DNA of 64,000 nucleotides. Origin: an uncultured Clostridia bacterium. GTDB taxonomy: Bacteria > Bacillota > Clostridia > Christensenellales > UBA1242. A model generated the notes under the pieces. It had not been told where the DNA came from, made no database searches, and saw only the letters and a program-made list of their open reading frames with translations. Of the stretch, positions 5,471-50,116 are shown piece after piece (position 1 is the first letter of the stretch; each line of letters opens with the position of its first letter). A program made the position numbers and the translations under genes. The stretch covers positions 76,939 through 140,938 of the forward strand of contig CALWKD010000004.1 in NCBI GenBank assembly GCA_944381175.1, read 5' to 3'.

Positions 5471-7432
5471 ATGGCTATCAATGTGTTGTCACCGAGAATT
5501 TACAATCGTATCGCCGCAGGAGAAGTGGTCGAAAAGCCAGCCTCTGTGGTCAAGGAACTTGTCGAAAACAGCATAGACGCTGGAGCGAGCAAGATTAAGA
5601 TTGAGATTGTTGGTGGCGGAATAAAAAAGATTTCTGTGTCTGACAATGGATGCGGAATTTCAAAAGATGACCTTCCGCTTGCCTTCTTGCCACACGCAAC
5701 GAGCAAGATTTCAGATATTGATGACCTTGACGGCATTGTTACGCTTGGGTTTCGCGGAGAGGCACTTGCAAGCATTGCTTCTGTTTCGCTTGTAAACCTT
5801 TCCACAAAGACCAAAGAGGCGGAAACTGGATACAAGATTGAAGCAAACGGCGGAGAAATTTCAAAAGTGGTGGAGGTTGCGAGACTTGACGGCACAACCA
5901 TCACGGTCTGTGACCTTTTCTACAATACTCCAGCAAGAGCAAAATTTTTGAGAAAGCCAAAATCTGAGGAGAGTGATATCACGCATTTGGTGGAGAAGTT
6001 TATGCTTGCTCATCCTGAGATTTCTTTTGAGTATGTGGTGGACGGTAAAAGCATTTACAACCACGCCAGCGGAAGCCTTGACGAAGTGGTCTATCTTATT
6101 TACGGAAAAGAGGTCTATGAAAATCTTTTGAAACTTGACCACGAAGAAGACGGGGTCAAGGTGGGAGGATATATCGTTTCTCCAAAACTCTCGAAGCCAA
6201 ACCGCACATTCCAATCACTCTTTGTAAACGGCAGATATGTCGAGAATTTTATGGTCTCTGCTTGCGTGCAAGGGGCTTATGAGCATTTTCTTATGAAAGG
6301 AAGATTCCCTATCTACATTTTGAAACTGGAAATTCCTTTTGATAGGGTCGATGTCAATGTTCATCCAAACAAAAAAGAGGTCAAATTTGACAATTCTTCA
6401 AGAATTTTCGGTATAATTCGCAGGGCTGTTGAGAAGGCTCTCGTTTCGACAAATTTGATTGCGGACTTCCAGTTTACAAGTGAAGAAGAAAAGGAATGGA
6501 GCAAGTTCGACATAAATGTGGATAAAGAGCCAGAGCGCACTGGCTTTGATGCTTATCCTCAAACAAATTTTGACAAGATGACGGAAAGCGAGGGTGCAAG
6601 TTTCAGAGTCTCTGTGGATGATGAGAGTTTGAAAGAGAAGGTTGTCTCTCCAAAAGAATACCAAAAGAAAGGCATTGAAATCATAAATATGCCAGAATTT
6701 TCTTCTGTTAAGTCGGATGTGAAGGCAAAAAACCGACCAGGCGGAAACATTTTTTTTGACCAGTCAGGTGACAGCCTCTTGCACGAGGTCGAACTCAGCG
6801 TCAAAAACGAGATGAAAGCGGAGAATTTGCCAAAGGTGGAAAAAGAGACCTTTTTGACTTCAAATATTGAGAAAATCAAGATTGTGGGTGCGGTTTTCAA
6901 GACCTACATCATAACAGAATTTGAGGACGCGGTCTACATCATTGACCAACACGCGATGCACGAGCGACAAAATTATGAGAGACTCAAGGAGCAGATTGAG
7001 AAAAACAATGTCGCAAAACAAGACCTTCTCATCCCTTACAAAGTGGAACTTTTGGCAAAGGATATGGAGCAGTTTAGGGAAAGAATAGCAAATCTTGAGC
7101 AGATTGGCTTTGAAATAAGAGACAACGGCTCGAATTTTGAAATTTTGAGTGTGCCGTTTGTCATCTCTGGAATAAATTTGAAAAACTTTGTTGATGATAT
7201 TCTGTCGAGCGACATCTACAATGACAAAACTGCCAGCGGAATTGTCAATGACAAACTCTGCCAAACCGCTTGCAAGCACTCAATAAGAGCGGGTGACAGC
7301 ATTTCAAAGGAGGAAATCGTTTATTTGATTGAACAGATGCAAAAAAATGTTCCGCTTTGCCCACACGGCAGACCAATCATTGTCAAAATCAGCAAAAAAG
7401 ATTTTGAGAAGATGTTTAAAAGGACTTTGTGA
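5471..7432 (+). CDS. mutL: DNA mismatch repair endonuclease MutL
   Basis: 653 aa. GHKL ATPase N-terminus (NRIAAGEVVEKPASVVKELVENSIDAG). C-terminal endonuclease motif DQHAMHERQNYE. RBS AAAGGAG upstream. Confidence 0.97.
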   Translation: MAINVLSPRIYNRIAAGEVVEKPASVVKELVENSIDAGASKIKIEIVGGGIKKISVSDNGCGISKDDLPLAFLPHATSKISDIDDLDGIVTLGFRGEALASIASVSLVNLSTKTKEAETGYKIEANGGEISKVVEVARLDGTTITVCDLFYNTPARAKFLRKPKSEESDITHLVEKFMLAHPEISFEYVVDGKSIYNHASGSLDEVVYLIYGKEVYENLLKLDHEEDGVKVGGYIVSPKLSKPNRTFQSLFVNGRYVENFMVSACVQGAYEHFLMKGRFPIYILKLEIPFDRVDVNVHPNKKEVKFDNSSRIFGIIRRAVEKALVSTNLIADFQFTSEEEKEWSKFDINVDKEPERTGFDAYPQTNFDKMTESEGASFRVSVDDESLKEKVVSPKEYQKKGIEIINMPEFSSVKSDVKAKNRPGGNIFFDQSGDSLLHEVELSVKNEMKAENLPKVEKETFLTSNIEKIKIVGAVFKTYIITEFEDAVYIIDQHAMHERQNYERLKEQIEKNNVAKQDLLIPYKVELLAKDMEQFRERIANLEQIGFEIRDNGSNFEILSVPFVISGINLKNFVDDILSSDIYNDKTASGIVNDKLCQTACKHSIRAGDSISKEEIVYLIEQMQKNVPLCPHGRPIIVKISKKDFEKMFKRTL

Positions 7433-17286: not shown

Positions 17287-18009
17287 TTAAATTCTTTTTA
17301 CTTCACCTTTTGAGATTTTGTAGCATTTTCCGTATAATTTTTTGTTTCCTTCGTCATCAACCAAAAGATATGAGCCGTTTGGGATGCCTAGAAAATCTTT
17401 TTCGTTTGACATAGGCAAAATGTAATCGTTCACAATATCAATTTCATCAAGGGGTATTTGATAGGTTTTTGTTTTTCCGTCAAAGTGCGGAATGATGATT
17501 TCATCGCAAAATCCCAAGCCCTCAAACCACCTTGGCTCATCAAGGTCGGCAAGTTCTTCTGGAAAATTTGCAACCGTCTCACATAAATTCATTGCTCCAG
17601 CAGAAGTTCCAATCACGATGCCTTTAAAGTTTTTTAAGATGTTTTTGAGATTTATTTCCTTGAAGAAATTTTGTTGACATAAGCATTTGCCACCACTAAG
17701 GATGATTATATCTGCATTTTCCAAAATTTCTTTTGCGTTTGATTTGTTTCGACTGTCAAGCACAATCTTTTCTTTGAAAGGTTCTTTTTTGAAGGTTAAA
17801 TCAAAACTTTTGAAAACAAGAGCGGAGCGGGTGTCATTTTCGATTGTGTTGTTTGGGTCATTGCAAACCCACACGAGTCGATTTTTTGCTTTTAAATTCT
17901 TTTTAAGGTTAGTCAAAATTTTGTTTTTGTTTTTGATTTTGGTTGGAGTTCTGCTTCCGTCTTCATTGTGTCGGTGAGTGACAAGACGGCTTGTCAAGAT
18001 AAATGTCAT
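17287..18009 (-). CDS. Peptidase S51 (dipeptidase E-like) family protein
   Basis: ILSGG...; nucleophile elbow IGTSAGAM; IIPHFD. ATG (CAT 18007-18009) with RBS AAAGGAGGAA. Confidence 0.7.
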   Translation of the reverse strand: MTFILTSRLVTHRHNEDGSRTPTKIKNKNKILTNLKKNLKAKNRLVWVCNDPNNTIENDTRSALVFKSFDLTFKKEPFKEKIVLDSRNKSNAKEILENADIIILSGGKCLCQQNFFKEINLKNILKNFKGIVIGTSAGAMNLCETVANFPEELADLDEPRWFEGLGFCDEIIIPHFDGKTKTYQIPLDEIDIVNDYILPMSNEKDFLGIPNGSYLLVDDEGNKKLYGKCYKISKGEVKRI

Positions 18010-18061
18010 AATTCCTCCTTTCAATCAAAAAACAAAATATTAAATTTTTGATAAAAATAGT

Positions 18062-18151
18062 TGGCGCAGAGAAGGAGATTCGAACTCCTGGTGCGATTTC
18101 TCGCACACAGCCTTTCCAGGGCTGCACCTTAAACCACTCGGACATCTCTGC
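18062..18151 (-). tRNA. tRNA-Ser (anticodon GGA), type II, CCA encoded
   Basis: Hand-folded. Acceptor GCAGAGA/TCTCTGC. Anticodon arm CAGCC-CTGGAAA-GGCTG. Long variable arm GTGCGA-GAAA-TCGCAC. T-arm AGGAG-TTCGAAT-CTCCT. Discriminator G + CCA. Confidence 0.9.
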
Positions 18152-18568
18152 ATTTGTCGCAAACTGCATTTAGATTTGGTTTGAATTTAAAATTATTTGC
18201 CACCAAAAACCAATAAGAGCGGTTTAAGGTGCATTTGGGGTCCCCAAAAATTTTTAATTTTAGGGGAGAAGAGAGAAACAAGCGTTAGGGCGAAACTTTC
18301 AAACCTTTGAAAGTGAGCAAAAAGCGAAGTTTCGAACGCAAACCACTCGGACATCTCTGCATTTGTCGCAAACTGCATTAGATTGGGTTTGAATTTAAAA
18401 TTATTTGCCACCAAAAACCAATAAGAGTGGTTTAAGGTGCATTTGGGGTTCCCAAAAATTTTTAATTTTAGGGGAGAAGAGAGAAACAAGCGTTAGGGCG
18501 AAACTTTCAAACCTTTGAAAGTGAGCAAAAAGCGAAGTTTCGAACGCAAACCACTCGGACATCTCTGC
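18131..18568 (-). repeat. Tandem 209/208-bp repeat: three copies of tRNA-Ser nt 1-21 separated by two ~188-nt inserts (X)
   Basis: The 21-mer aaaccactcggacatctctgc occurs at 18131-18151, 18340-18360 and 18548-18568. X copies at 18152-18339 and 18361-18547 differ by only a few substitutions/indels. Confidence 0.95.
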
Positions 18569-18576
18569 ATAGGTTT

Positions 18577-18672
18577 GGGAAGCACCAACTCCGTTTAACG
18601 CGGGCACGATTTACGAAATGTAAATCTAACCGCTACTGCGTTGGTTCTCCTCCAAGTCTCTCTCCATTAAGG
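18577..18672 (-). other. Structured module homologous to the P12 arm of the RNase P RNA in this window
   Basis: Minus strand reads CCTTAATGGAGAGAG...GCGGTTAG-hairpin-CCGCGTTAAACGGAGTTGGTGCTTCCC. The 27-nt 3' block matches rnpB 39968-39994 with one compensated mismatch. Confidence 0.7.
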
Positions 18673-18868
18673 TGAGATGACTCAAAGGTTTTTCATAACG
18701 CGCCGCGCAAATTGAAGTTTGCTCATCGCAAGCGCTCGGGGAGCGTTTGTTTGCTCCGCCTCACGACCAAGCGAAAATCTCGAATACCCTCGATTTTGTC
18801 GTGACTTGAAGTTGTATTTTTTTATATTTCCTCCAAGTCTCTCTCCATTAAGGTGAGATGAATCAAAG
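18649..18868. repeat. 39-nt direct repeat pair (18649-18687 and 18830-18868)
   Basis: cctccaagtctctctccattaaggtgagatga[c/a]tcaaag occurs twice, 181 bp apart. The first copy is the 5' part of the P12-like module (minus sense). Confidence 0.9.
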
Positions 18869-19042
18869 TTTTTTTCGTTATGTTCACTTCCAAAGCATAT
18901 TAAAGATACCACAAATGAAAAAGTTTTGCAAGCGATTTTTAGTTTAAACCTTTTCAGTTTTTAGACAATAGTATATTTTGTTGACACAATCTCCTTTTGT
19001 GTGCTATTATACCTACAAATGAGGAAAAATGGAGACAAAAGT

Positions 19043-19606
19043 ATGGCAAAAGAAGATTTGAGGGTTATCAGAACAAGGAAATTGCTTTCTAAGGCATTGA
19101 AAGATTTGTTGCAAGAAAAATCGTTTGACAAAATTACAGTCAATGACATCTGTGACAAGGCAATGGTGCATAGGGCGACTTTTTACAACCATTTTATTGA
19201 TAAAATTGATTTATTGGACTATGTTTTTGACGAAATGCAGAACGAAATTTATCAAAATGTTGTGAAATTGACCGATTTCAACTCATCAAAAGAGATGTAT
19301 ATTGCAATTTTAAGCAAAATTATTGATTATGTTGATCAGCATAGAAAAGAGATTAAACTTATTTTGAAAAACAGCACAAAGGAATTTCAGACAATTTTGT
19401 TTGACGCGATTCGCAGAGGAATTTCTTATTTGGTGGCAAAGTGCAACGACAGCAGTCCTTATGAGGACATCCTTGATGAAATTGTAAGTTTTTTCACTGG
19501 CGGGTTTTCAAGGTTGTGCATTGAACTTATTTTGTCTGATAAACCAATCAAGAAGGATATGATTATGGCTTATTTGGAAAGCATTTTGAATGTGACGATT
19601 TTATAA
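19043..19606 (+). CDS. TetR/AcrR family transcriptional regulator
   Basis: N-terminal HTH TRKLLSKALKDLLQEKSFDKITVNDICDKAMVHRATFYNHF. RBS GGAGA before ATG 19043. TTGACA-18-TATTAT promoter at 18981-19010. Confidence 0.9.
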   Translation: MAKEDLRVIRTRKLLSKALKDLLQEKSFDKITVNDICDKAMVHRATFYNHFIDKIDLLDYVFDEMQNEIYQNVVKLTDFNSSKEMYIAILSKIIDYVDQHRKEIKLILKNSTKEFQTILFDAIRRGISYLVAKCNDSSPYEDILDEIVSFFTGGFSRLCIELILSDKPIKKDMIMAYLESILNVTIL

Positions 19607-39350: not shown

Positions 39351-39402
39351 GCGAAAAAACGGCACTTTAGCGAAAAAACGGCGCTAAAACTCGGCTTGCT
39401 GT

Positions 39403-39573
39403 TCGCAAGCGCTCGGGAGACGCTTGTTTTTTCGCTACTTCGCACCAAACGAAAATTGCACAATTTGTGCAATTTTGTGCGAACTTTCTTTGGTTTTTAT
39501 TTATAAAGACGCATGGCGTCCGACCAAGCGAAAATCTCGCTCGCTTTGCTTCACTGCGATTTTGTCGTGACTT
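39403..39573. repeat. Modular intergenic repeats (module 1 at 39403-39430; bulged-hairpin module 2 at 39441-39486 and 39520-39573), related to 18726-18807
   Basis: tcgcaagcgctcggg.ag.cg.ttgttt is shared with 18726-18752. The motif CGAC-CAAGCG-AAAATC...GATTTT-GTCG-TGACTT is shared with 18762-18807. The variant CGCAC-CAAACG-AAAATTGCACA-ATT-TGTGCAATTTT-GTGCG keeps the architecture with different stem sequence. Confidence 0.8.
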
Positions 39574-39753
39574 AAAGTGGAGACATCGAAATGGTGCTGA
39601 GCAGATGCAAAAAAAATAAATGTAGTTAGGCGAAAATTTGTATGTTTAAAATAGAAAATGAAAAAATGGCGCTTTTGGCTTGGTTTTATATTCTCATATA
39701 TTTAGGAATTTGGAAAATAAAAGGGCACGCGGTGGCATTGTGGGGTTGGAGCG

Positions 39754-39782
39754 GTTGACAAATTTAGTGTTTTGTGATATAC
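39754..39782 (+). promoter_or_regulatory. Sigma-A type promoter of rnpB
   Basis: TTGACA (39754-39759), 17 nt, TATACT (39777-39782). The P1 helix starts about 7 nt downstream. Confidence 0.7.
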
Positions 39783-39787
39783 TGACA

Positions 39788-40200
39788 AAGTCAGACAGCC
39801 AGATGGTCGCTGTGCAGTTGTGATGACTGCAGAGAGGAAAGTCCGAGCATCTAAAGAACAAGGTGCCAGTTAACGGCTGGTGAAGGCGACTTCAAGGATA
39901 GTGCAACAGAAATAGACTGCCCTAATTGGGGAGAGTCAATGAAGTGGCGGTTAGGCTTTGCCTTGTCCGCGTTAAACGGAATTGGTGCTTCCCCAGGGCG
40001 ATGGTGGAAAGGTAGGGTAAGAGCCTACCGAGGCGGTGGCAACATCGCTTGCTCTGTAAACCCCACCTGATGCAAGATTAAGTTTGAGCATATGTGTGTT
40101 CTTTCACGCTCAACAAAAGTATCGCTTGAACTTGTTGGCGACAACAAGTCTGGATAGATGACCATCAAATACAGAACTCGGCTTACAGACTGTCTGACAA
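39788..40200 (+). ncRNA. rnpB: RNase P RNA, bacterial type A, with an enlarged P12 arm
   Basis: P1 GTCAGACAG...CTGTCTGAC. P4 strands GAGGAAAGTCCGAGC and ACAGAACTCGGCTTACAG. GTGCAACAGAAA. P13/14-type GGTAGGGTAAGAGCCTACC. Confidence 0.9.
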
Positions 40201-40226
40201 ACCACTTTATGTGGTTTTTTTATTGC
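40201..40226 (+). terminator. rnpB terminator; first copy of a 26-nt perfect direct repeat
   Basis: ACCAC-TTTAT-GTGGT + T7. The identical 26-mer accactttatgtggtttttttattgc recurs at 40502-40527. Confidence 0.8.
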
Positions 40227-40295: not shown

Positions 40296-40502
40296 ATGAA
40301 AAGAAAATTTGCAGAGAGGTTGAGAGAGTTGAGACAGGAGAAAAAGTTGTCGTATAAGCAACTAGGAAATCTTGTCGGCTTGAGTTCTTCGGCACTTTGC
40401 AATTGGGAAAATGGTCTGATGGATATCACAAGTGACAACTTACAAATTTTGGCGGATTTCTTTAAGGTGAGCACTGATTACCTTTTGGGAAGAGAAGATT
40501 GA
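40296..40502 (+). CDS. XRE-family helix-turn-helix protein (68 aa), probably leaderless
   Basis: FAERLRELRQEKKLSYKQLGNLVGLSSSALCNWENG...LADFFKVSTDYLLG. Extended -10 TGATATAAT ends 7 nt before the ATG, and there is no RBS. Confidence 0.85.
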   Translation: MKRKFAERLRELRQEKKLSYKQLGNLVGLSSSALCNWENGLMDITSDNLQILADFFKVSTDYLLGRED

Positions 40503-40527
40503 CCACTTTATGTGGTTTTTTTATTGC
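40502..40527 (+). terminator. Second copy of the 26-nt terminator repeat
   Basis: Perfect repeat of 40201-40226. It begins at the last base of the XRE stop codon. Confidence 0.8.
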
Positions 40528-46197: not shown

Positions 46198-47628
46198 ATG
46201 GAAGACAAACTTATAAAAAGATTGCTTAGAATTGAAAAGACCATTGATTTGAGATATAACGCAAACCGCCTGAATTTTTACAACAAAAAAGGAAAGATTC
46301 ACAAAAAACAAATGGCATTTCACAAATGCAAGAAGAGAAACCGCTGGGTCTTTGGCGGAAATCGTTCTGGCAAAACTGAGTGCGGAGCGGTGGAAGTGGT
46401 CTATCTTGCTTGCGGGATTCATCCGTATCGAAAAAACAAGGTGACGGAAGGTTGGGTTGTCAGTCTTTCAAGACAGGTGCAAAGAGATGTCGCACAAAAG
46501 AAGATTTTGCAATATTTGCCCCAATCTTACATTGAGAAAATTGTTATGGTCAGCGGAGGTGCGGACAGTGCCGAAAACGGAATTATTGATTTTATTGTCG
46601 TAAGGTCGGCTGTGGGCGGGCTAAGCAAAATCGGCTTTAAAAGTTGCGACCAGGGCAGAGAGAAGTTTCAAGGGGCTTCACTGGACTATGTTTGGTTTGA
46701 CGAAGAGCCTCCGCAGGACATTTATATGGAATGTAAAATGCGTGTGCTTGACAAATGCGGAGATATTTTTGGCACGATGACGCCACTTAAAGGGCTCACT
46801 TGGGTCTACAACACCATCTACCTAAACGATAAGCAGGACAGTGAGGTTTGGTTTGAGATGATGGAGTGGGCGGACAACCCATTTCTGTCCAAAAAAGAGA
46901 TTCAAAACTTGACCAAGACTTTGCCCGCTGACGAACTGGAAAGCAGGCGTTATGGCAAGTTTATGCAAAACGGTGGGCTTGTCTACAGCGAGTTTGACGA
47001 AAATGAGAATGTCATTGAGCCGTTCGACATCCCAGAAGATTGGCAGGACGCAATATCTATTGACCCAGGACTTCACAACCCCCTTTCCGCTCATTTTTAT
47101 GCGGTTGATTATGACGGAAATGTCTATGTTGTGGCGGAGCATTATCAGGCGGAGAAGAGTGTGGAGTTTCACGCAAACAAAATCAAGGAGATTGCCGACA
47201 GACTCCATTGGAAGCGTGACAGAAACGGCTTTTTGCGAGCTTTTATTGACTCGGCGGCGAAACAAAAGACTTTGTCCAGCGAGAAAAATGTCGTGGAACT
47301 TTTTTATGAAAATGGAATCCTCGTAAACCCCAATGTCAACAAAGACCTTTTCTCTGGCATCTCTGTCGTCAAGTCTTACATCAAGACTCTTGATGGGAAG
47401 CGAAGACTTTTCATCTTTAAAAATTGCGTAAATTTGATTCGCGAGATAAAGAGTTATTGGTGGGGAGATGACGATGTTCCGATCAAGAAAGATGACCACT
47501 GTCTTGACGAACTTCGATATTATCTTATGACAAAACCGCTCAACAAAGAAAGGGCAGGAAAAAATGAAATTCAAAAGGACAAAGAAAAAATGGCGAGGAG
47601 ACTCAGATTGTCTGGAAACAATTATTAA
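46198..47628 (+). CDS. Phage terminase large subunit (TerL) homologue, apparently intact, without other phage structural genes
   Basis: Walker A GGNRSGKT. Walker B DYVWFDEEP. RNase-H-fold nuclease Asp motifs AISIDPG and KKDDHCLDELRYY. Confidence 0.85.
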   Translation: MEDKLIKRLLRIEKTIDLRYNANRLNFYNKKGKIHKKQMAFHKCKKRNRWVFGGNRSGKTECGAVEVVYLACGIHPYRKNKVTEGWVVSLSRQVQRDVAQKKILQYLPQSYIEKIVMVSGGADSAENGIIDFIVVRSAVGGLSKIGFKSCDQGREKFQGASLDYVWFDEEPPQDIYMECKMRVLDKCGDIFGTMTPLKGLTWVYNTIYLNDKQDSEVWFEMMEWADNPFLSKKEIQNLTKTLPADELESRRYGKFMQNGGLVYSEFDENENVIEPFDIPEDWQDAISIDPGLHNPLSAHFYAVDYDGNVYVVAEHYQAEKSVEFHANKIKEIADRLHWKRDRNGFLRAFIDSAAKQKTLSSEKNVVELFYENGILVNPNVNKDLFSGISVVKSYIKTLDGKRRLFIFKNCVNLIREIKSYWWGDDDVPIKKDDHCLDELRYYLMTKPLNKERAGKNEIQKDKEKMARRLRLSGNNY

Positions 47629-47716
47629 AAGGAATTTTTTGCCAATTTTTGTAAATTTTGCAAATAATTTGTCAATATATTTGGAAAAATAATCTTGAAT
47701 GTGGTAAATTAAGACT

Positions 47717-50116
47717 ATGAGAAAAAGCATCAAAAAGGTTGTGTGTGCGGGCGTTGTTTTTGCTGTCATATCCATCTTTGCTGGTCTTGGTGGATTTTGT
47801 TTTTCTTCGCAAAATGTTGTGGAAGCGGCGACAACTTATGCAAACACCTATGAGATTGGAGACAAAGGAACTCTTCAAAACAGAATAATAAACTATGGAA
47901 ACACGAGTTCCACCTCAAACTTTGTCTTGACGAGCGATATTGATATGAGCGGAATCACGCTCAATTCGACTCTTGGCACGGAGGAATTTCCTTTTCAGGG
48001 GACTTTCGATGGACAGGGGCACACCATATCAAATTTGACGATTGACCTTTCTCAGACGCTTCAGGGCACTCCTGTCACGGCGTCAAACAAATATGCTGGG
48101 CTCTTTGGAATTACGAATGGTGCAACCATAAAAAATGTCGCACTTTCTGGCACAATCACAATCATTTTGGGCGATTGCACAACTGCTTATGTTGGTTCTT
48201 TGGTCGCAAATGCACAAAACACGACCATACAATATGTTCAAAACTCTGCAAGAATGGTCATCAAGCAAAGCCCAAGTGATGTGACACAAACCTCTTTTGA
48301 CAACACTTTGATTCTTGGCGGGCTTGTCGGAATTTCAAATTCTTCAAGCATTTCGTATGTCATAAACAGGCAAACTGACATTGGCTCATTCAGTTTCAAC
48401 GACAACAAAGGAAGAATTTCTTCTATCGGGGGTGTCGTTGGGCAACTTCTGAACAGCAGCCTTGTCTTTGGTGTGTCAAGGGCAAACTTGAATGTGACTG
48501 TTGGGGAAAGTTATGCTGGGACTTTGAATATAGGGGGAGTCTTTGGCTCAGTTTCTGGCTCAAAAGTTTTCCAAAGAGTTGGGGTTGCTGTTGCGGATAT
48601 GATTGTTGAGAACACTCTGAATGTGACAAACAATTCCTCAATCATCAATGCGACGGTCAATGTTGGGCAGGTCGGTGGTGTGATTTCAAGTCCATATCCG
48701 ACGACGCTTGGACTTTCTTCCATTTATTATCGCACAAATTCAACTCATTCCGCTTTTGGAGAGACAAACACCTACACTTTCTCAAATTCAGCGACGCTTG
48801 ACGGAATTATTCATACCGACACGCAGTTTACAAGTGAAGCGGTTGTGAACGATTCCAGCAAAAACTGGCACTCTTCCTTTGGGCTTTGGGATTTTGACAC
48901 GGTTTGGTATTTCAACGGCTCAACTATTTATTTGCAGAGTTTTTATGGCGGTTTTAACATTCAACTTGCCTCCGATTTGCAAAACTCAACTATTTTTGAA
49001 GTTGAGGGAATTTCTGATGAGAACGGTTTGACAAGCACAAGATACAATTATCAATCGCAGGTGACGATTTCTTTCAGATTTAGGGATGGTATGGAAAAAT
49101 ATTACACCATAACTGGACTAAACCAAGGAAGCGTTGAAAACAAAGTGACCATTGACTACAACACCGAAACTGGACAATACACAAACACTTCCGACCCAGA
49201 AAATTATGCCATTTCTGAGGACGGCGGCGTGATTTCCGTCACTATTAAAAGCGTGAACAGGTCGACTGCTGGCACTTATGACATAAATTACAGGGCAAAC
49301 GAGTTCACTGTTGAGGTGACGACAAAATTGTTTGATTCGGAAAATCAACTTGAGGAAGGTGTTGTGCCTGGAGATATTTATTATGCTGGAGGAAACACTG
49401 CGCAAGTGCTTCCAGTCAGTGTTATGATGACTTACAACACCACAAGAACACTTGAGGTTAGACTCAGAAATGCAAACTCACCATACGCACTTCAGGGGTG
49501 GTATCTCGAAGTGGAAGACGGACAAGACAAACTTCTTTCTTCTGGAAGTTCCTTGGCAATAAGTTTTGGTTCAGGCGATTTTACGGACAACTGCAAGATT
49601 TATGCAAGATACCAAGATGACGCGTGTCGAATCAGTTTTGAAATTAAGGGCGACGGAATTTCCGAAATCTATATCGGAGACAACTTGGTGACCGAAAAGG
49701 TTGCGACAGTGCTCAAAACTGCAAGCAGGCTTAAACTTGAGATTTATGTCGAAGAGGGATACACTTTTGATGTCCAACGCTTTTTGGATATGATGGCAAC
49801 ATATCGTGGCGAAGATACCACAACTCCTTTCTGCACTTGGGAGAATGAGGCGAGTGGAGACGACAGATATTATCTTTTCTATCTTGATATGACCACTTTG
49901 AGAGGAGAATTCTCTGAGAGTTTCAGCGTCGAACTTGACACTGAAAAGACCGTCGCAGAGACAAACACTTGGATTTGGTATGTGGTCGGAGGTGTTGGAG
50001 GCGCTGTTGTGCTTGGCGTTGCGATATTCCTGATTGTCTTCTTTGTTAAACGCCGAGGCGGTGGTGGCGGAAATGTCGGAGGATATTCAAGAAAATCTTT
50101 CAGAGGATACTACTAA
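47717..50116 (+). CDS. GLUG-motif repeat surface protein with C-terminal TM anchor and Gly/Arg tail
   Basis: Signal peptide. FQGTFDGQGHTISNL. Repeated GLFG/GGLVG/GGVVG/GGVFG beta-helix-type GLUG units. TM WIWYVVGGVGGAVVLGVAIFLIVFFV + KRRGGGGGN. Confidence 0.7.
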   Translation: MRKSIKKVVCAGVVFAVISIFAGLGGFCFSSQNVVEAATTYANTYEIGDKGTLQNRIINYGNTSSTSNFVLTSDIDMSGITLNSTLGTEEFPFQGTFDGQGHTISNLTIDLSQTLQGTPVTASNKYAGLFGITNGATIKNVALSGTITIILGDCTTAYVGSLVANAQNTTIQYVQNSARMVIKQSPSDVTQTSFDNTLILGGLVGISNSSSISYVINRQTDIGSFSFNDNKGRISSIGGVVGQLLNSSLVFGVSRANLNVTVGESYAGTLNIGGVFGSVSGSKVFQRVGVAVADMIVENTLNVTNNSSIINATVNVGQVGGVISSPYPTTLGLSSIYYRTNSTHSAFGETNTYTFSNSATLDGIIHTDTQFTSEAVVNDSSKNWHSSFGLWDFDTVWYFNGSTIYLQSFYGGFNIQLASDLQNSTIFEVEGISDENGLTSTRYNYQSQVTISFRFRDGMEKYYTITGLNQGSVENKVTIDYNTETGQYTNTSDPENYAISEDGGVISVTIKSVNRSTAGTYDINYRANEFTVEVTTKLFDSENQLEEGVVPGDIYYAGGNTAQVLPVSVMMTYNTTRTLEVRLRNANSPYALQGWYLEVEDGQDKLLSSGSSLAISFGSGDFTDNCKIYARYQDDACRISFEIKGDGISEIYIGDNLVTEKVATVLKTASRLKLEIYVEEGYTFDVQRFLDMMATYRGEDTTTPFCTWENEASGDDRYYLFYLDMTTLRGEFSESFSVELDTEKTVAETNTWIWYVVGGVGGAVVLGVAIFLIVFFVKRRGGGGGNVGGYSRKSFRGYY

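Follow-up and report, generated by a model that had tools for sequence, protein, structure and literature searches.

A species-specific insertion in helix P12 of a bacterial RNase P RNA is homologous to the leader of tRNA-Ser(GGA)

Integrative elements and their miniature derivatives accrete in tandem at tRNA genes, as in the ICE/CIME systems. In rnpB, the RNase P RNA gene, the STRR repeats of cyanobacteria are said to have been located in helix P12 by Vioque in 1997. These repeats within cyanobacterial RNase P RNA genes are the closest precedent for the locus described here. P12 is also subject to ordinary length variation within the family RF00010. In one passage of the literature the helix is called 'sometimes dispensable (e.g. 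in cyanobacteria)' (PMC2858038), and in archaeal RNase P RNA it contains K-turn modules that bind L7Ae (PMC4245976; PMC5499556).

The case we report lies in a 64,000-nt stretch of DNA from an uncultured Clostridia bacterium, which we analysed as a whole and call the window. It is a lineage-specific expansion of P12 by genomic sequence, and what is new in it is that a single structured segment is involved and that the donor is a tRNA leader. Like the STRR case, it presents a genome-derived repetitive sequence inside rnpB with a lineage-specific distribution; unlike that case, the insert is a single 73-nt segment of three helices without a tandem repeat detectable by TRF, its relatives are found in tRNA-Ser leaders only, the insert itself occurs in one gut Clostridia species, and it has one other copy in 64 kb, whereas STRR are dispersed. 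With ordinary P12 length variation it has in common the position, the tolerance of the site and the canonical state of the remaining RNA, but it differs in being a discrete jump from 14-32 to 83 nt in one genus, with the donor in the same genome. The archaeal K-turns resemble it to the extent that P12 is able to host functional structured add-ons; the insert described here, however, is bacterial and lacks the tandem G.A/A.G signature (position 2b is U). As in the ICE/CIME systems, both the tRNA-Ser locus and the 3' end of rnpB feature strain-variable cassettes with direct repeats of 23-46 nt, but direct repeats are lacking around the P12 insert, there is no integrase nearby, and the cassettes measure just 135-300 nt. 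Our preferred reading, to which we would assign a probability of roughly 0.58, is that a leader hairpin was copied once, ectopically and as DNA, into a tolerant site in P12, where it is probably a functionless passenger.

The rnpB gene of the window specifies a bacterial type A RNase P RNA, which matches RF00010 over its full length (model positions 1-367; gathering score 100). The features at this locus are:

39791..40201, plus strand: rnpB, bacterial type A RNase P RNA, 411 nt (Rfam RF00010, 261.4 bits)
39755-39783, plus strand: rnpB promoter, TTGACA-17-TATACT
40199-40217: rnpB terminator
39923..39995, plus strand: the module, rnpB copy, an insert of ~73 nt in the P12 apical loop (from the cmscan alignment, sister rnpB genes and the fold)
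39920-39922 (CCC) and 39996-39998 (GGG), plus strand: P12 pairs bordering the rnpB module

The cmscan alignment treats 39927-39990 as an insertion within helix P12. Relatives were found via RarA, MnmA and the 453-aa neighbour of rnpB, and are MAGs labelled Clostridia, Christensenella or Candidatus Caccovivens (the last being classified as Clostridia, Eubacteriales incertae sedis). The rnpB orthologues found in ten of these relatives align to the window gene at 1-~131 and ~205-411, with almost nothing between, and the rest of the window RNA is canonical. The conserved flanks of P12 (J11/12 and J12/13), GTGCAACAGAAATAGACT and TGGTGGAAAGG, are invariant across the genus and intact here. Measured between the invariant flanks GTGCAACAGAAAT..ACT and.G.TGGAAAGG, P12 has the following lengths:

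83 nt: the window species and strain L003
32 nt: L106
22 nt: L104 and L007
22 nt: L009
18 nt: L015
16 nt: L013
15 nt: L008
14 nt: L011
14 nt: L014

The closest lineages available, as judged by the fast-evolving 453-aa rnpB neighbour (80% identity), are L104 and L106, with rnpB lengths of 350 nt and 360 nt as against 411 nt in the window. An insertion into P12 had been among the possibilities raised by the sequence-only reading, and the comparison of rnpB across relatives bears it out: with 83 nt here against 14-32 nt in nine sister lineages of the same genus, near Candidatus Caccovivens, the module has been inserted into the apical loop of P12 in this species alone and is not a native arm. P12 of L014 reads ACTGCCC-GAAA-GGGTGATGG and that of the window ACTGCCC-(73 nt)-GGGCGATGG; therefore, the insert replaces the apical loop of a minimal P12, and sits exactly between the CCC/GGG pairs which close the GAAA loop in L014. 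At the junctions, CCC/TAATTGGGG...CTTCCCCA/GGG, there is no target duplication, and the sole inverted repeat is the helix itself. No direct repeats flank the P12 insert, no junction signature such as microhomology or target duplication points to a mechanism, and TRF reports no tandem repeats in 39780-40210.

Some further observations concern the same gene. P12 is unusually small throughout the genus (14-32 nt in L007-L015, L104 and L106), and in some species it consists only of CCC-GAAA-GGG. The contigs of L002 and L006 stop just before the module; we considered and rejected P12 polymorphism within the species as the cause, because these contigs end inside the genus-identical rnpB core, and we attribute the break to an assembly-graph branch. 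The contig of L103 does not extend into rnpB. At the 3' end of rnpB a 26-nt direct repeat (40201-40226 and 40502-40527), which includes the terminator hairpin, brackets a 300-nt segment; in other strains (L003 2371-2992; L103 1-583) the same 26-nt repeats enclose a longer cassette with small HTH genes of the Xre type. This end of the gene looks like an integration hot spot.

The second copy of the module occurs upstream of a tRNA-Ser(GGA) gene, in a locus with several layers of repeats:

18062..18151, minus strand: tRNA-Ser(GGA) gene (ARAGORN; Rfam tRNA, 52.5 bits)
18152..18568, minus strand: two tandem 208-nt units between module and tRNA, each opening with tRNA nt 1-23
18569..18576, minus strand: spacer of 8 nt, AAACCTAT, separating the module from the tRNA 5' core
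18577..18672, minus strand: the module, tRNA-Ser leader copy (fold; covariance model, 97.4 bits)
18576-18653, minus strand: covariance-model core of the leader copy
18577..18603, minus strand: 27-nt block, leader copy
39967..39993, plus strand: 27-nt block, rnpB copy, which forms the 3' strand of the arm and agrees with the leader copy at 26/27 positions
18648..18693, minus strand: D3a, a 46-nt direct repeat overlapping the 5' part of the leader module
18829-18874: D3b, the partner of D3a
18694..18828, minus strand: 135-nt segment between the D3 repeats, with hairpin AAGTCACGAC...GGTCGTGA and a degenerate C block
18717-18737: the degenerate C block, GAGCGCTTGCGATGAGCAAAC, within the D3-bracketed 135-nt segment
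18903..18931, minus strand: candidate promoter of leader and tRNA, TTGCAA, 17 nt, TGgTATCTT (our own reading of the letters)

The sequences quoted earlier for rnpB and for the leader are both present exactly where, and on the strand on which, they had been placed. The two copies are 21 kb apart and mutually inverted on the chromosome; the leader module has 13 nt extra in its 5' part and a longer apical hairpin than the rnpB module. Their common 27-nt block, CCGCGTTAAACGGA[A/G]TTGGTGCTTCCC, has exactly two occurrences in the window with up to three mismatches allowed, and any match at all was seen in 0/100 shuffles. The copies are not an assembly artefact, because the rnpB copy is present in three independent assemblies (L001, L003 and L005) and the 3' half of the leader copy is recovered in L089, a contig represented in 20 or more samples. 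Exact-protein matches place the source species in several other gut-type samples too.

The first 21-23 nt of the tRNA, its 5' core, are present in three copies at a spacing of 208 nt. The module ends 8 nt upstream of the outermost 21-nt core copy (18548-18568), just as had been noted from the letters, and the duplication of its 5' part seen at the same time extends to 46 nt at 96% identity (18648-18693 and 18829-18874). In L089, AAACCTAT and the module are joined directly to a complete mature tRNA-Ser without the 208-nt units, and this junction is a real configuration because 31-mers spanning the 23-nt core were needed to form it; L090 displays the unit-type junction of the window. The 208-nt units, absent from L089 and present in L090, are a strain-variable later addition. 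The suggestion that the module occupies the position of the original tRNA leader holds up: in L089 it abuts tRNA-Ser, and a sister species has a diverged homologue in the corresponding leader. The candidate leader promoter scores below the scanner threshold, and between it and tRNA-Ser the scan contains no promoter or terminator on the minus strand.

The repeats around this tRNA gene have further peculiarities. The tandem unit (18131-18570, minus strand) amounts to 2.1 copies at 98% identity, and each unit contains a 17-nt inverted copy of tRNA nt 13-29 (18425-18441, 100%; 18217-18233, 94%), an antisense segment that could pair with the D arm and anticodon stem of the tRNA in the precursor. 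The units look as though a miniature element had accreted in tandem at a 23-nt core within the 5' part of the tRNA gene, an uncommon place for such accretion. Logan contigs and k=31 assemblies of other samples break at the 46-nt D3 repeat. L089 itself ends at the start of the leader apical hairpin (window equivalent 18611), and this break may reflect strain heterogeneity between an ancestral GGCTTTGCC and the derived ATTTAC...GTAAAT. The leader strand GUUGGUGC (18585-18592, minus strand) is complementary to the tRNA-Ser 3' end and trailer GCGCCAAC (18057-18064, minus strand), in a pairing which includes GGU/CCG like that of L15 with RCCA, and in a unit-free model of the precursor the MFE structure contains 18 leader-tRNA pairs. 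As a mechanism we dropped the pairing of GUUGGUGC with GCGCCAAC, which L100 does not share and which does not exceed what chance would give.

The equivalent loci of relatives are variable. In the closest relatives by MnmA (L096-L098, 90-92%) the segment with the S51 peptidase, tRNA-Ser and TetR is wholly missing; there, mnmA abuts FTHFS or an HD-domain gene, and the window equivalent of the missing segment is 17287-19606. The tRNA-Ser gene is on the minus strand in L099 and on the plus strand in L100 and L101. Within the genus, the interval between mnmA and FTHFS is a hot spot of recombination. In L099 (MnmA 88%) tRNA-Ser stands behind a simple promoter and the module is absent. The tRNA-Ser leader of L100 (MnmA 87%) includes a 167-nt segment (6128-6294) between 31-nt direct repeats, CCATTTTTGGGGAAAAGGAGTGAC[C/G]AAGCGT, and this module-bearing segment is absent from L101, the MnmA of which is identical to that of L100. 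The leader copy is dispensable, as its absence from L101 and L099 indicates.

The segment of L100 contains CCCTACATTGGAGGGAGATTGGGACGGGGAACCAAAAGTCTAGGCATTAGGCTTTGCCGTGTGCCGTAAAG...ATTGGGGTGCCCC. The 5' block of the L100/L107 leader matches the window leader copy with a score reached in 0/1000 shuffles; the L100 apical hairpin matches the rnpB copy at 15/16 positions, a value reached in 1/1000 shuffles; and both elements follow each other in the same order and with the same 11-nt spacing as in the module. The best hit of a two-copy covariance model in the L100 leader falls on the same segment, weakly, at 9 bits; in a large search the model misses the L100 copy. The hairpin is flanked by nested 4-bp and 7-bp helices, equalled in 79/20000 shuffles, with GGCA/UGCC in place of GCGG/CCGC (three double changes), and an alternative register with CCAA/UUGG and GGGG/CCCC is possible. 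The L100 leader segment is a probable distant homologue of the module, and we do not put it forward as a close member.

These relatives also bear on the direction of copying. The apical hairpin of the rnpB copy is of the L100 type, TTAGGCTTTGCC, and its 3' strand is shared with the window leader, the apex of which is longer (GATTTAC-ATTTC-GTAAATC). Since the rnpB apex is shared with L100, the apex of the window leader is the derived one, and an earlier form of the leader was probably the source of the rnpB copy. We infer that the leader is the home locus and that the leader copy is older than the rnpB copy. The opposite direction would have a native P12 expansion or a foreign rnpB come first, with a fragment copied later upstream of tRNA-Ser, and the L100-type apical hairpin of the rnpB copy can indeed be read as the less derived one. 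Sister rnpB genes, however, are without the module, yet a homologue is found in a sister tRNA-Ser leader; no rnpB carrying the 23-nt block was found in any other genome among 185,579 species-representative genomes; and the tRNA locus has no similarity to rnpB beyond the module, an Rfam scan of 17900-19100 at E <= 10 returning no family besides tRNA and no RNase P hit. We regard the reversed direction as largely refuted and very improbable. A degraded duplicate of rnpB at the tRNA locus, which the sequence-only reading had named as the scenario that would undo its proposal, is likewise rejected: the module alone matches there.

A second piece of leader-derived sequence lies next to rnpB:

39381..39415, minus strand: C block on the upstream side of rnpB, matching the L100/L101 tRNA-Ser leader at 34/35 positions (E = 7e-14)
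39521..39578, minus strand: hairpin block, likewise upstream of rnpB, with a counterpart in the leader at 18764-18812

The region upstream of the leader module (18717-18812) has both a hairpin block and a C block in common with 39381-39578. In the sister leaders the C block comprises 35 nt with the hairpin GCTTGC-N5-GCAAGC (L100 6299-6333; L101 6132-6166). Its 34/35 identity is far above the neutral intergenic expectation for species with MnmA 87% identical, and suggests either a recent exchange or a strong constraint. Among 107 loci, the C-block pattern is confined to the window tRNA leader, the region upstream of the window rnpB and the L100/L101/L107 leader, which is the same restricted distribution as that of the module. 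The two companion blocks are in direct orientation, unlike the inverted module copies. The presence of two separate leader-type pieces at rnpB argues for DNA-level exchange between the two loci. It speaks against a repeat dispersed throughout the genome, and also against an event mediated by RNA. An event of the latter kind would involve reverse transcription across a complex of RNase P and pre-tRNA-Ser, with template switching and replacement of part of rnpB by the chimeric cDNA. Its one attraction is the coincidence of a substrate leader as donor and the enzyme RNA as recipient, but an RNA intermediate leaves unexplained a leader block that is upstream of the rnpB promoter and on the opposite strand, the window has no reverse transcriptase, and the P12 loop is distant from the active site. 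We consider such a capture exceedingly improbable.

The module had also been proposed to be a portable RNA domain. Our results do not support this proposal: there are two close copies and a distant one, no match in large collections and no Rfam family. A degenerate 23-nt pattern gave 0 matches in 185,579 species-representative genomes, IMG/VR viral contigs and JGI metagenomes; blastn searches with the module gave no match in phage and plasmid collections; and a search with the leader 5'-block pattern retrieved the L100-type locus again and nothing further. Against Rfam 15 at the gathering threshold, the window has no family beyond RNase P and tRNA. The covariance model of the two copies, which had been suggested as a way to find more of them, yields no third copy in the 64-kb window with filters off (the next hit has 13.9 bits, E = 0.13), and in ~330 kb of genus DNA it recovers the same-species copies and no others. 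A widespread portable RNA element is rejected on the 0 hits of the 23-nt pattern in genome, viral and metagenome contigs and the lack of matches among phages and plasmids.

A more restricted form of mobility would be a low-copy miniature non-autonomous family (MITE-, REP- or PATE-like), one member of which entered the P12 loop; its members would be recognised through their hairpins in DNA, or moved in trans by a recombinase whose gene lies elsewhere. The presence of the 167-nt module segment in L100 and not in L101, between 31-nt direct repeats, is a presence/absence polymorphism of the kind such a family would leave; other direct-repeat cassettes (with 23-nt, 46-nt and 26-nt repeats) are found at both loci; the C block is 34/35 identical across species with MnmA only 87% identical; and compensatory changes are equally expected for DNA hairpins. 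Against these points, there are two copies in 64 kb and none in ~330 kb of genus DNA outside tRNA-Ser leaders, and searches of 185,579 species genomes and of the remaining collections gave no copy. The P12 insert has neither terminal inverted repeats beyond the helix nor a target duplication, and the rnpB copy is present in L001, L003 and L005, with no polymorphism seen. The window is without a transposase, integrase or reverse transcriptase: none of these, nor a recombinase, is found among the 36 window proteins scanned. A mobile family of this kind appears unlikely to us. Elsewhere in the window, 46198-50116 holds an ORF resembling the terminase large subunit (Terminase_6N, E = 3.6e-17) followed by a 799-aa ORF without a Pfam match; this may be what is left of a prophage among genes that otherwise have housekeeping roles.

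The arm common to both copies adopts a predicted three-helix fold with the same internal loops. From the outside, it consists of a GGAG/CUUC helix, a 2x2 loop, a 5-bp helix and an asymmetric internal loop, followed by a 4-bp helix, GCGG/CCGC, and the apical hairpin. Both copies have the identical sequence GUUAAACGGA as the 3' strand of the internal loop, and L100 retains part of it (GUAAAGA). The homology of the two sequences, their common fold and their compensatory changes, as originally claimed, stand: the block matches at 26/27 positions, and in the pairwise alignment 34/34 cells pair. Three pairs have changed on both sides; the A/G compensation noticed at the outset is the U-A/C-G pair in the 5-bp helix, and the other two are in the apical hairpin. 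Controls with the register slid by 1-3 columns have 44-58% of cells paired and 0 double changes; in a shuffle control of pairing and double changes, with n=2 sequences, 68/500 reach the observed value, which is not significant. The rnpB module of L003 has one G-C to G-U change in the outer helix. The third, distant sequence of L100 adds double changes in S3, with a register that is partly ambiguous; MAFFT misregisters the L100 helices in an alignment of the three copies, so that the structural counts for L100 were made by hand and are less secure. In every copy where they can be scored, 16/16 helix positions are paired, and 10/16 are variable. Covariation between the copies is seen but thin (3 double changes, n = 2). 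The sequence-only reading had taken this pattern as a sign of selection on RNA structure: the pairing does suggest such selection, but the sequences are very few, and pairing in ssDNA leaves the same signature.

By itself the rnpB copy does not outdo shuffled sequences in folding (z = -0.86), whereas the leader copy does (z = -3.7); in the leader context, predicted folds put the outer helices in competition with the D3 hairpin and with the 3' end of the tRNA. Identity between the copies is 26/27 in the 3' strand and 20/25 in the 5' strand, a difference that could hint at a sequence-specific constraint and is not significant (Fisher p = 0.09). Sequence inspection led us to reject a canonical K-turn in the internal loop, position 2b being U and not A; its bulged strand, UCAAU-GAA-G-U-G or CCAAC-GCA-G-U-A, lacks the tandem G.A/A.G signature. 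By the same means, sarcin-ricin, UAA/GAN and tetraloop-receptor readings were discarded, as none suits both copies.

A further explanation would make the module a functional RNA domain: either a binding site for a common protein or RNA partner linking RNase P RNA with the pre-tRNA-Ser leader, or a mimic of the leader that modulates processing. The fully paired shared fold, with 3 double changes between the copies and more with L100, the identity of the internal-loop strand GUUAAACGGA in both and its partial retention in L100, the 26/27 identity of the 3' strand and the placement of the L089-type module 8 nt from the RNase P cleavage site are all in keeping with it. The module is, however, absent from nine sister rnpB genes and from the tRNA-Ser leaders of L099 and L101, and its distance to the cleavage site is not conserved, varying from 8 nt in the L089 type through ~110 nt in L100 to 424 nt in the window strain. 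Moreover, no Rfam family is matched, the internal loop is no canonical K-turn (2b = U), the predicted folds in the leader context are in competition with the D3 hairpin and the tRNA 3' end, and the isolated rnpB copy has the z of -0.86 given above. We judge a functional domain to be distinctly unlikely.

In the reading we prefer, that of an ectopic DNA copy, a hairpin-forming segment of ~70 nt in the tRNA-Ser(GGA) leader would have been copied at the DNA level in the ancestor of a single species, and the recipient would have been the tetraloop-sized apical loop of a minimal rnpB P12, at a distance of 21 kb. Illegitimate recombination or ectopic gene conversion would be the likely mechanism. 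The leader region is a hot spot of small indels with flanking direct repeats. The distal part of P12 is peripheral and dispensable, and would tolerate an insert provided that it folds as a self-contained helix extension. Its stems would stay paired via compensatory changes because the insert must fold in this manner, and pairing would be kept because a 70-nt insert that misfolds within the S-domain would do harm. We infer that the insert is neutral, most likely a passenger with no dedicated function. Several observations count against this explanation: the junctions bear no signature of a mechanism; the module copies are inverted whereas the companion blocks are direct, and no single simple event covers both; the closer match of the 3' strand could hint at a sequence constraint, although the difference is not significant; the search of this genome covered 64 kb, and further copies may lie elsewhere in it; and helix positions of which 16/16 are paired while 10/16 vary represent an excess of order for a neutral passenger.

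A reading of the P12 insert as a captured substrate leader, that is, as a second copy of a putative binding site also present on pre-tRNA-Ser, seems to us decidedly improbable. If it were true, leader and enzyme would compete for or share a partner, be it a protein or the pre-tRNA itself, and RNase P would have gained a lineage-specific regulatory connection to one of its substrates. The locus is, in any case, a clean and datable example of how the peripheral helix of an essential ribozyme acquires a structured domain: the donor persists in the same genome, the state before the insertion survives in sister species, and compensatory changes have already arisen in the helices. It is a striking coincidence that the donor should be the leader of a substrate of RNase P. 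Should the insert prove functional, a ribozyme would have drawn an accessory domain from its own substrate, which is rare; a neutral insert would offer a useful natural experiment on how well P12 tolerates 70 additional nt and on the speed of structure upkeep.
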